Source: Escherichia coli (GTDB lineage Bacteria > Pseudomonadota > Gammaproteobacteria > Enterobacterales > Enterobacteriaceae). From it: a stretch of DNA of 64,000 bases. A program made the translations under genes and the position numbers. The stretch lies in assembly GCF_003790525.1 (NCBI RefSeq), contig NZ_CP033635.1. One strand, 5' to 3'. Shown piece by piece: positions 52,820-54,801 of this stretch; position 1 is the first letter of the stretch, and each line of letters starts with the position of its first letter. The notes under the pieces were generated by a model. The model made no database searches. It was given only the letters and a program-made list of their open reading frames with translations, and had not been told where the DNA came from.

Positions 52820-54091
52820 CTATTCTTTCCAGTCAATCCCATCCAGTAAGCACCCTGCCTCATATTGCCCAACAACCCAGTCAAGATTGCAGGACTCATA
52901 GAAAGCGAGGCGATTATACTGTGGCTCGTTTTTTACCAGACCACGAACGGAGCCGCGTTGCCAGTACAGGCACAGATTGGCAAGAGGTGTGATCAGCACA
53001 GCATTGTCCGGGAAAAATGGAACGGTCACAGCCGGAAGATTCCCCAGCACGGGCTTTTTAATGATTTCCTCGTTAAGCAAAATTTCCTGATTCATCTGCG
53101 ATGGATCAAGACGGTTTATCAAAGGCCATTGTTTACGGACCAGAGTATTGTGACTGCATACGGCCACAATGCCTTCCTGCCACTGTTCATCAATCATGGA
53201 TTGCCAGGCATCCAGAACAAGTGCATCTATTGTATGGTGTGTACCGCGTGTATTGCTTGTCGGCGATGAAACAGAAAGACCGCTGATAACCCTTCCCGCT
53301 GCTTCGTTTCGAAACTTCTGCAACCATCCGACGCCGCAATCGTCACGGCCCGGATATGTTTCAGGATCAGATTGATCGGCATAGTGTGTGCCGTTAAAAC
53401 CAATCTGAATTAAATCCAGCCATTTCCGGCGTTCAAAAGCGGCACGGGCGCTTCCTTCAAGACCATTTGCGGACGCGTGAGCATCGACATTGTCGTAGCT
53501 CAACGCAAAATCAAAATTAACCTGCTCGCAGCGGTAGCCTCTTGAAACCAGTGAATGCGCCTGTAGTGGCGAACGGCGCTCGTGAGGTGGCGATGTACGT
53601 GCCAACGGCCGGGAAGCGTCTACCAGCACAACCTGACCTGATATATCCGTAACAGGCACGGGGGTTATTTCAGCAAGGAAATTTGCCTGCCATCCACTGG
53701 CAAGCGTTGCACTCTGGCGGGGAACGGGTTCAACTTCTGACGAATAGCGCGCAGTATCACCGGAAAAGTGCAAATCCTTCGGATGCTTTCCGGTTATCGA
53801 CTCGATAGCGCAATTGAAAACCATCTGAGACTGTTGATTTCGTTGTGATACAACATAATCAGCAGTGCAATTATAACACTCAATGCCGTCGTTATTACCC
53901 CCACCGCTTGCAGTATGCAGGGTGTGAAGCTCAAGCTCACGCTCCAGTTTTTGATATTCATTGTCCAGCGCGCGACGCGTCTCATCGCTTATGCTTGCTG
54001 TGTTTGCTTTCAGGCGATTCCGGGACATTAACTCCCTGAGTCGGCTCACTATATCAGCGCCGTGCAAATGTGAAATATTCAGACCGCCCAT
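52820..54091 (-). CDS. Hypothetical protein, 423 aa from internal Met, unknown function
   Basis: Start chosen at the ATG overlapping the stop of the upstream gene (TAATG); no recognisable catalytic motif seen by eye. Confidence 0.5.
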   Translation of the reverse strand: MGGLNISHLHGADIVSRLRELMSRNRLKANTASISDETRRALDNEYQKLERELELHTLHTASGGGNNDGIECYNCTADYVVSQRNQQSQMVFNCAIESITGKHPKDLHFSGDTARYSSEVEPVPRQSATLASGWQANFLAEITPVPVTDISGQVVLVDASRPLARTSPPHERRSPLQAHSLVSRGYRCEQVNFDFALSYDNVDAHASANGLEGSARAAFERRKWLDLIQIGFNGTHYADQSDPETYPGRDDCGVGWLQKFRNEAAGRVISGLSVSSPTSNTRGTHHTIDALVLDAWQSMIDEQWQEGIVAVCSHNTLVRKQWPLINRLDPSQMNQEILLNEEIIKKPVLGNLPAVTVPFFPDNAVLITPLANLCLYWQRGSVRGLVKNEPQYNRLAFYESCNLDWVVGQYEAGCLLDGIDWKE

Positions 54092-54801
54092 TACTGCCAC
54101 CCCCGGCAGAGTTCTCTGCCCTCCGCAAGGTCGCGCATTTTTTCTGGATTCTGTCGCGCCGCGCTCCATTGTACAGGTGAAGGGGCGTTCCTGATTGCGT
54201 GGCTTACCGAATCCGGCAGTTTCTCCGGGCAATAACGAAGCGGATTGGAGGCATCGCTCTCAATATCGTTAATCCGGCCGCGAATCAGCCCGACACTTTC
54301 AACAATATCTGCCATTTTCAGTGTTTCACATATTTTCTTTTCTGCGTTATACAGCGGCTGGCCAAGCAGCTCACATAAACCACGAATCAATAGCAGAGCA
54401 GGGGTCAGCTCGTTAATCAGTCCGGGAAGTGCTTTTGCAAATATCTCTGCCCGCAACTTATTATCAATGCTTTGGTAAGCACAGCCAGCCTCTGCCGCGT
54501 TATAACGACACTCCAGTAACCTGATGCGCGCCTCATCATGCAATACCCGCAGACGCTCAAGATTTTCTCGCGCCACACCCGCCTGAATGCATAATTTTGC
54601 GGAGGCTTCCGTTTTTGCGCCCAGCGCAGACAGGATTGAGTTCTGCCAGTCACGTTCGAGAGACTCCAGCTCCCCTTTCGTCTGTTCGATAGTCGCTTCC
54701 AGATTGGTGATTAATGATTCCTGTTCGCTGAGTTTTGCCATGGCCGTATCAAACTGTGCTTTACATGCCTGATGCCTGGCGCTTGCCTGAGTTATATCCA
54801 T
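54091..54801 (-). CDS. Hypothetical predicted coiled-coil protein, 236 aa, weakly Psu-like
   Basis: N-terminal heptad-like region; a short QFDT-containing stretch resembles my recollection of the phage P4 Psu N-terminus, which is not verified. Confidence 0.45.
   Translation of the reverse strand: MDITQASARHQACKAQFDTAMAKLSEQESLITNLEATIEQTKGELESLERDWQNSILSALGAKTEASAKLCIQAGVARENLERLRVLHDEARIRLLECRYNAAEAGCAYQSIDNKLRAEIFAKALPGLINELTPALLLIRGLCELLGQPLYNAEKKICETLKMADIVESVGLIRGRINDIESDASNPLRYCPEKLPDSVSHAIRNAPSPVQWSAARQNPEKMRDLAEGRELCRGWQ

Follow-up and report, generated by a model that had tools for sequence, protein, structure and literature searches.

Two overlapping genes, here called gene A and gene B, lie on the minus strand of a 64,000-nucleotide stretch of Escherichia coli DNA (NCBI RefSeq assembly GCF_003790525.1, contig NZ_CP033635.1; this whole stretch is referred to as the window), inside a chromosomal island of the P4 type. 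P4 is the textbook example of a satellite without a virion protein of its own, and its Sid protein reshapes the capsid protein of the helper phage. In the island, gene B encodes a P2-family (gpN) major capsid protein belonging to a clade that is confined to satellites, and gene A, its constant upstream neighbour, encodes a probable distant member of the Sid/Psu family that lies closer to Sid. The pair is read, with moderate confidence, as the capsid-morphogenesis module of a P4-type satellite of ~12.5 kb, by which small capsids would be built or redirected. An initial annotation, made by eye, had left the operon without a function and offered either P4 capsid remodelling or variable anti-phage cargo as its role. 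The slot for capsid remodelling proved to be the right option.

A coupled gene pair and its gpN-type capsid protein

In the list of open reading frames (ORFs), gene A occupies 54801..54091 (minus strand, ATG start, 236 aa) and gene B 54091..52820 (minus strand, 423 aa). The stop codon of gene A (TAA, 54093-54091) overlaps the start codon of gene B (ATG, 54091-54089), which reads TAATG on the minus strand and CATTA at 54089-54093 on the plus strand. The overlap described in the initial annotation is thereby upheld in its coordinates and junction, on the minus strand, and the pair forms a tightly coupled two-gene operon within a P4-type satellite. A 470-aa ORF beginning with TTG at 54232 is an in-frame 5' extension of gene B, as had been supposed and as the ORF list bears out; the 423-aa form is the one called by the Prokaryotic Genome Annotation Pipeline (PGAP) in identical loci. 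The flanks were likewise described correctly, with an Ogr/Delta-like gene on one side and a MazE/MazF pair on the other. This variant of the locus is present in 56 of 5,426 complete E. coli genomes, where gene B bears the RefSeq name "P2 family phage major capsid protein". Rather than being disrupted in most homologous islands, an outcome envisaged earlier, the ORFs are intact in 55 of the 56. Purifying selection acts on both genes. A comparison of two E. coli variants gives dN/dS values of 0.31 for gene A and 0.09 for gene B, with 0.06 for the body of gene B and too few changes in its N-terminal extension to judge.

Gene B is a P2-family major capsid protein. The locus had been regarded as being of unknown function, with no assignable motif in either protein, but gene B is a clear gpN homologue, though not one visible by eye, and is already annotated as such in RefSeq. 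Its protein matches Pfam PF05125 (Phage_cap_P2) at E 2.2e-73 over model positions 38-327 of 327, phrog_70 ("major head protein") at E 1.5e-77, and the P2 gpN chain of the P4 procapsid (PDB 7jw1) at E 8e-55 by sequence. By BLASTP, residues 86-419 align with residues 3-340 of P2 gpN at 34% identity, so that gene B contains a complete gpN-type body after ~85 extra residues. Its score against the NCBIfam equivalog model for gpN (TIGR01551) lies below the cut-off, at 135 vs 219.65 bits. An AlphaFold (AF2) model built from 37 sequences, with a predicted local distance difference test (pLDDT) score of 72, places an HK97 fold after an N-terminal hairpin and linker. When this model was searched with Foldseek, gpN of 7jw1 was matched at E 4.5e-25 with a template modelling (TM) score of 0.72-0.78 on the target, and the best structural matches were gpN and the phiRSA1 capsid protein. 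The body, residues 86-423 (52820..53836, minus strand), is accordingly a complete gpN-type HK97-fold major capsid protein of a satellite-specific clade, preceded by an extension of residues 1-85 (53837..54091, minus strand) that is absent from phage major capsid proteins.

In the AF2 model the extension consists of a helical hairpin (helices at residues 7-29 and 36-61) and a disordered, Gly/Asn-rich linker (residues 62-82). Across the clade, a hairpin motif of ~45 aa is conserved (F..RIK.LI.RN...SPE.R..LE.EN..L..EL) and is followed by a variable linker of low complexity. A fused C-terminus of gpO was considered as the origin of the extension, on the cues of a tblastn alignment running through the scaffold gene of Peduovirus P24A7b and a weak BLAST match ending in a Gly-rich tail. 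This origin found no support when 14 extensions were compared with 8 gpO proteins by hhalign, which returned a probability of 0.2%.

Two further regions set the satellite capsid proteins apart from gpN. The first is the sir loop of gpN (residues 183-224), the surface gripped by the C-terminal helix of Sid and the site of Sid-resistance mutations; through this helix and the loop, Sid bridges gpN hexamers (PMC7552001). In the satellite clade, the sir-loop region has a conserved clade-specific sequence (RVISGLSVSS...) with a deletion, and its identity is 0.52 within the clade and 0.26 between clades, vs 0.37-0.41 in the neighbouring regions. The other is an 8-residue insertion, found in all capsid proteins of the clade exactly at the site where gpN is cleaved during maturation (gpN 31|32, by the gpO protease); in gene B the insertion region covers residues ~108-120 (window ~53730-53770). 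The N-arm of the satellite clade is poorly conserved relative to phages.

In a search covering 5.8 billion proteins, a clear score gap divides the homologues of gene B. The upper group, drawn from Salmonella, Klebsiella, Erwinia, Pectobacterium, Symbiopectobacterium and other E. coli, contains proteins mostly of 390-500 aa with 41-52% identity and scores of 260-390 bits, and the lower group contains genuine phage capsid proteins of 335-411 aa that score at most 200 bits. In a neighbour-joining tree, the satellite capsid proteins form a monophyletic clade. Most of its members carry an N-terminal extension of 54-153 aa, vs ~0 in phage major capsid proteins, and a tblastn search of 50,697 phage records returned no member of the clade, the best identity being 39%. 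The clade is confined to satellites.

The pairing of the two genes is equally consistent. Locus contexts were inspected in Klebsiella, Salmonella, Erwinia and two divergent E. coli variants, further loci were added from scans of species-representative genomes and IMG/VR with the capsid clade alignment, and all were tabulated with hidden Markov models (HMMs). A gene A-family gene stands directly upstream, on the same strand, in 21/21 satellite-type capsid loci (Enterobacterales), and in this tabulation gpO, Q, P, M and L were found in none of the 21. The gene A family is missing from all 97 phage-type capsid loci, gpO is present in 96 of them and other head genes in most. Synteny with gene A, a small gene named orf77 and the Ogr gene is kept across Escherichia, Klebsiella, Salmonella, Erwinia and Izhakiella. 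The pair is thus a fixed, conserved core module and not hotspot cargo: the co-occurrence that was to be checked is complete among these loci, whereas the variation foreseen for cargo is not seen in the pair, the variable slot lying downstream of it.

Gene A as a probable relative of Sid

No identity for gene A was found in Pfam, NCBIfam or PADLOC, and word-indexed homology searches returned near-identical copies only. An exhaustive HMMER scan of 1.84 billion representatives recovered only 18 relatives, of ~240 aa and 24-41% identity, whose most conserved part is the C-terminus (PSP.Q...LAEG.E.C(K/R)G). Several comparisons point towards Sid, the first three of them only weakly. BLASTP aligned gene A with P4 Sid at 25% identity over 154 aa (E 1.5), the Sid/Psu family phrog_6165 was matched at E 0.059, and the family profile of gene A reached the PDB sequence of Sid at E 1.1, while the family HMM gave 11.9 bits against Sid and 2.8 bits against Psu. 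An hhalign comparison of the gene A family with a 17-sequence Sid alignment yielded a probability of 79% and an E-value of 1.6e-5 over 98 columns. The motif W..(A/G)GGV.TEE is common to both families, and all the sequence signals of gene A that point to Sid fall in one collinear register.

Structure prediction agrees with this direction. The AF2 model of gene A (pLDDT 92.7) is all-helical, with helices in the same order as in the published Sid, and has the elongated helical architecture of the Sid type. Its two long stem helices (residues 3-58 and 65-146) correspond to residues 11-137 of Sid, and two shorter helices (150-163 and 166-179) to the Sid knot region (139-189). A short helix at residues 187-190 lies in a loop that in Sid spans 189-219, and C-terminal helices are present where Sid has alpha6. 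In a Foldseek search against 350,542 PDB chains, the first two ranks were taken by P4 Psu (3rx6) and P4 Sid (7jw1_E), the latter matched over 241 columns with a TM score of 0.48 and a probability of 0.99. Gene A (54091..54801, minus strand) is best described as a 236-aa all-helical protein, external scaffold-like and probably a distant relative within the Sid/Psu family.

Two other identities were tried for gene A and set aside. As an internal scaffold of gpO type it found BLASTP similarity of only E 0.44 and a family HMM score of 2.5 bits against gpO. As Psu proper it had no BLASTP similarity, and Psu was only a fold match of low TM score, Sid being the better match. The initial annotation had stated that confident Sid or Psu hits for both proteins would make the locus ordinary satellite cargo. 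That expectation came true in gene A only, and weakly. The gene B protein is neither Sid nor Psu but a paralogue of the helper capsid protein, which makes the locus capsid-related without making it ordinary P4 cargo.

The satellite island, its control region and its cos-like segment

The island has a P4-like design and is distant from P4 in sequence. In the conserved order of this type of element, an integrase is followed by AlpA, small ORFs (in some relatives an epsilon-like or DUF5375 gene), a primase, often a second tyrosine recombinase, an Ogr/Delta-like gene, the divergent orf77, gene A, gene B and a variable cargo slot. In E. coli E9 the whole element measures ~12.5 kb and lies between hpt and gcd, and IMG/VR proviruses of the same type are 11-15 kb long. 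In the window, the integrase ORF (63195-63998) runs off the end (the integrase is annotated by PGAP in GF60), and an AlpA-type regulator is encoded at 62363-62584. The primase-helicase combines a zinc ribbon, a Toprim domain and a P-loop (phrog_1139); its similarity to P4 alpha is at the level of motifs only (E 2e-4), though the domain logic is the same. Rfam models identify a C4 antisense RNA at 61507-61594 (minus, 74.6 bits) and isrK at 61620-61701 (minus, 50.6 bits), both adjoining an Icd-like ORF at 61282-61809; judging by these matches, the two RNAs represent RNA immunity of the P1/P4 type inside the island. The Ogr/Delta-like activator (55250-55432, minus), so named by PGAP, is a single-domain zinc-finger protein of 60 aa that matches phrog_603 at E 1.3e-10 and domain 1 of P4 Delta with 39% identity (E 5e-7), and gene A was adjacent to such a gene in all contexts inspected. 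Within the island, no Psu-like ORF was found, nor were portal, protease/scaffold, terminase or connector genes; the capsid gene is the only one of its kind.

The control region upstream of the pair contains a repeated motif, CGTAATAC, which occurs 7 times in the 64-kb window, always within 54852-55889, where 1.3 occurrences were expected and 0 of 100 shuffles reached 7. The repeats noted in the initial annotation are consequently real and cluster next to the pair beyond shuffled expectation. Three copies (54852-54859, 54880-54887 and 54903-54910, unstranded) lie in the divergent control region, and further copies begin at 54993, 55195, 55524 and 55882. The copies are a probable operator for a small regulator. 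A candidate is orf77 (54966..55199, plus strand, 77 aa), a small divergent gene that stands on the opposite strand in most relatives and possibly encodes a ribbon-helix-helix regulator, its match to CopG being weak (E 0.11). In relatives, a palindrome, CTGTWATACAG, forms the core of the CGTAATAC repeat and sits just upstream of the dyad described next; these boxes may be the operators of orf77.

No sigma-70-like promoter was predicted between orf77 and gene A. A dyad resembling an Ogr/Delta box, TGT-N12-AGA, lies at 54877..54894 (minus strand), 93 nt upstream of the gene A ATG. The sequence TGT-N12-ACA is the Ogr/Delta-responsive element of P2/P4 late promoters. No exact TGT-N12-ACA was found near the pair in the window. 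In an alignment of 11 lineages, a homologous dyad, T(G/C)T-N12-A(C/G)A, with a conserved ACAACAAAA arm is located 89-122 nt before the start codon. It is an exact TGT-N12-ACA in three relatives (Salmonella, one E. coli variant and one metagenome-assembled genome), with one mismatch elsewhere, and in Salmonella it is perfect (TTGTTGT-N12-ACAACAA). Support for the dyad in the window lies in the conservation of its position across lineages, and not in the match itself. At the other end of the operon, a terminator-like hairpin (52780..52797, minus strand) directly follows the gene B stop.

A link to the helper is provided by a cos-like segment at 55655..55821 (unstranded), which is homologous to sequence in a subgroup of P2-like phages, the likely helpers. 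The exact 19-mer of the P2/P4 cohesive end is absent within 3 mismatches. The segment is nonetheless ~83% identical to a non-coding segment of the P2-like phages 569R5, 705R2, PhiR44_2 and P88, and in these phages, as in an ST131 prophage, it lies just past the portal gene gpQ, the place where cos is located in the P2 family. Four TTGTGCA repeats lie in the conserved block, together with a G/C-rich 19-mer that agrees with P2 cos at 13/19 positions. Among complete E. coli genomes, 56 (those with the satellite) have the segment at >=90% identity and 417 have it at 80-90%; to judge from the phages and the ST131 prophage, the copies in the latter group appear to belong to P2-like prophages. A PGAP "hypothetical protein" ORF at 55647-55919 (minus) overlaps the cos-like segment and may be spurious.

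Several further features of the island and its surroundings were recorded. The MazE/MazF pair (52184-52776, plus strand) flanks gene B downstream, in the cargo slot between the capsid gene and the island end. This slot holds MazEF here and in Salmonella, UDG in Klebsiella, GmrSD with a type I restriction-modification system in Erwinia psidii, and Hok in another E. coli. After the primase comes another cargo slot, which holds HicAB in Salmonella. The gene for the second tyrosine recombinase (346 aa, 56612-57652, minus) follows the primase gene directly, overlapping the end of the latter. Most relatives keep this recombinase besides the att-site integrase, and its task might be to resolve multimers in a plasmid state. 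One and the same core for replication and morphogenesis is found behind different integrases and at different chromosomal sites, at tRNA-Arg/yfdC in GF60 and at hpt-gcd in E9, and in the GF60 copy an IS21 insertion separates the Ogr-like gene from the cos-like segment. Two genes abut the left end of the satellite: a 2637-aa autotransporter (43019-50932, plus), whose near-identical GF60 locus is annotated as the phase-variable adhesin UpaE with the ipuA/ipuB invertases upstream, and an OmpH-family gene (50980-51510, plus) that follows it. Positions 51500-51966 are 98.5% identical to the attL-containing end of Escherichia phage GER2, which suggests, from this likeness, that the junction is a shared integration hotspot.

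Proposed function and relation to known satellites

From the protein identities, the clade, the co-occurrence, the selection, the satellite context, the cos-like homology and the dyad, the following functional scheme can be inferred. Gene B is the satellite's own long-diverged gpN paralogue, equipped with an added N-terminal hairpin and a remodelled sir loop, and gene A, as an elongated helical protein of the Sid/Psu family, would be its cognate external size-determining scaffold. During late expression of a P2-like helper, the helper Ogr and/or the Ogr-like protein of the island would activate the gene A promoter via the dyad, and both proteins would be made in coupled amounts. The Sid-like protein would bridge satellite capsid hexamers into small (T=4-sized) procapsids on the helper portal, with the portal, scaffold/protease, terminase, head-completion proteins and tails all given by the helper, and the helper terminase would package the satellite genome through the helper-like cos region. 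Size redirection by a matched capsid-scaffold pair would be independent of the helper gpN sequence and so, it is proposed, proof against escape by sir-type mutations and compatible with several helpers. A more far-reaching version, offered only tentatively, is a satellite lineage, widespread in Enterobacterales but unrecognised, whose small capsid is made wholly from its own protein, shaped by a co-evolved Sid-like cage and with the N-terminal hairpin as a delta-domain-like internal scaffold. From P2-like helpers it would need no more than the portal, terminase, completion proteins and tails, which would place it between P4, which steals everything, and capsid-forming satellites that steal tails only, and would let it withstand sir-type escape by the helper.

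A number of observations weigh against the proposed scheme. The link of gene A to Sid is weak by sequence (BLAST E 1.5, PHROG E 0.059, profile E 1.1), the E-values of its Psu and Sid fold matches are only ~0.04, and a search of predicted viral structures with the gene A fold returned only generic coiled coils at similar E-values. The 8-residue insertion at the cleavage region makes it uncertain, on sequence grounds, whether the helper protease could process gene B. The dyad in the window is one mismatch off the consensus, and such near-matches are common by chance. A second cos-like copy is missing from most island-carrying genomes, so no resident helper is evident in them.

Among the alternatives, co-assembly after the manner of SaPIbov5 Ccm is considered unlikely, though less so than the others. 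The gene B protein would here form no shells by itself but mix with helper gpN (for example at pentons or as a nucleus on the portal) and so tilt the lattice towards a small capsid, with gene A as an accessory scaffold or decoration. A precedent exists, as Ccm enters small capsids and still needs the helper capsid protein (PMC6893505). Moreover, the gpN fold is retained in full in gene B, along with many inter-subunit positions, and an island without scaffold/protease and portal needs close cooperation with helper head proteins anyway. Mixed lattices look less likely, however, at 34% identity to gpN and with a remodelled N-arm, cleavage region and sir loop, and the obligatory presence of a Sid-like partner suggests a cognate pair, not a modifier that acts by itself.

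The other two alternatives dispense with a satellite capsid altogether. As an interference or defence decoy, the pair would act mainly through dominant-negative subunits that poison capsid assembly of the helper or of other P2-like phages, to the protection of the host population or the advantage of the satellite, and without a capsid of its own. Interference with helper morphogenesis is common among satellites, assembly could be capped or misdirected by a capsid paralogue whose N-arm is altered, and a defence role had been put forward in the initial annotation. A defence system was nevertheless rejected, since PADLOC gave no family match for gene B and, for gene A, nothing beyond weak coiled-coil noise (JetC, E 0.0022, 13.9 bits). 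The pair is, besides, a conserved core in 21/21 loci and not hotspot cargo, the whole HK97 body is under strong purifying selection (dN/dS 0.06), and late control of the Ogr type together with a cos-like site fits particle production better than pure poisoning; the decoy is accordingly held to be quite improbable. The homology of gene B to a phage structural gene, in a chromosomal island without other head genes, could also mean that the locus is what is left of the head module of a P2-like prophage, in decay and now without function. Yet the clade is monophyletic and old (41-52% identity between genera) with ORFs that are intact and selected, synteny with gene A, orf77 and Ogr is kept across five genera, and no other P2 gene fragments are present. 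Conservation and selection effectively exclude this last reading.

A conserved satellite lineage in several genera thus carries a matched capsid paralogue and Sid-like partner. If the capsid-morphogenesis reading is true, this would suggest how satellites evade helper resistance mutations in the capsid gene, and would supply a natural diverged gpN/Sid-like pair for studying how external scaffolds set the capsid triangulation number. There are also consequences for annotation. The RefSeq name of gene B can mislead prophage callers into seeing a P2 prophage remnant, and the element class has probably been missed by marker-based satellite finders. The main surveys recognise P4-like elements by a set of seven markers (int, alpA, epsilon, alpha, sid, delta and psu) and describe packaging and virion proteins as lacking (PMC8628076). 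When the island was compared with this set, the integrase, the AlpA-type and Delta/Ogr-type regulators, the cos-like segment and the RNA immunity were present and Psu was not; the definition, in the form given there, would probably miss this element. Satellites with capsid homologues are already known, namely SaPIbov5 with Ccm and the capsid-like genes of PmCI172, EcCICFT073 and the capsid-forming phage-inducible chromosomal islands (cf-PICIs) (PMC6893505). No description of a P4-type satellite with a gpN paralogue and a Sid-like partner was found in open-access papers and bioRxiv.

Compared with P4 itself, the island is alike in size (~12 kb), integrase, AlpA, primase, RNA immunity, Ogr/Delta-type activator and helper-related cos. 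Its module adjoins a Delta-like gene as in the sid-delta-psu operon of P4, gene A has the length and helix order of Sid and its best fold matches in that family, and the expected purpose, small capsids for a small genome, is the same. P4 differs in having Psu, which the island lacks, and in a Delta of 166 aa with a double domain, where the island activator is a single domain of 60 aa; the similarity of gene A to Sid is barely detectable, and the island primase shares only motifs with alpha. Above all, P4 uses the gpN of its helper only, whereas the island encodes a gpN paralogue of its own. With P2 gpN and the Peduoviridae proteins of PF05125, gene B has full-length homology and the HK97-type fold in common. 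These phage proteins lack the 85-aa extension, the 8-aa insertion at the cleavage site and the remodelled sir loop, and they fall outside its separate clade; their genes lie between gpO upstream and gpM downstream, while genes of the gene B clade invariably have gene A as a neighbour and adjoin neither gpO nor gpM.

Beyond the P2/P4 group, Ccm of SaPIbov5 is likewise a satellite-borne, diverged paralogue of the helper capsid protein used for capsid remodelling (PMC6893505). It belongs to an unrelated HK97 lineage, which Foldseek relates to gene B at the generic fold level only (E 2e-6), and to a Gram-positive PICI with a cos siphovirus helper, has no Sid-like external partner and brings about a change from prolate to isometric capsids. 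The cf-PICIs also encode their own capsid protein, but they possess a complete head and packaging module and steal tails only. Of the components typical of these elements (capsid, protease, portal, connectors and small terminase), the island has the capsid gene alone. If the proposed function is correct, the satellite described here would follow a strategy intermediate between P4, which steals the whole head, and the cf-PICIs, which steal only the tails.

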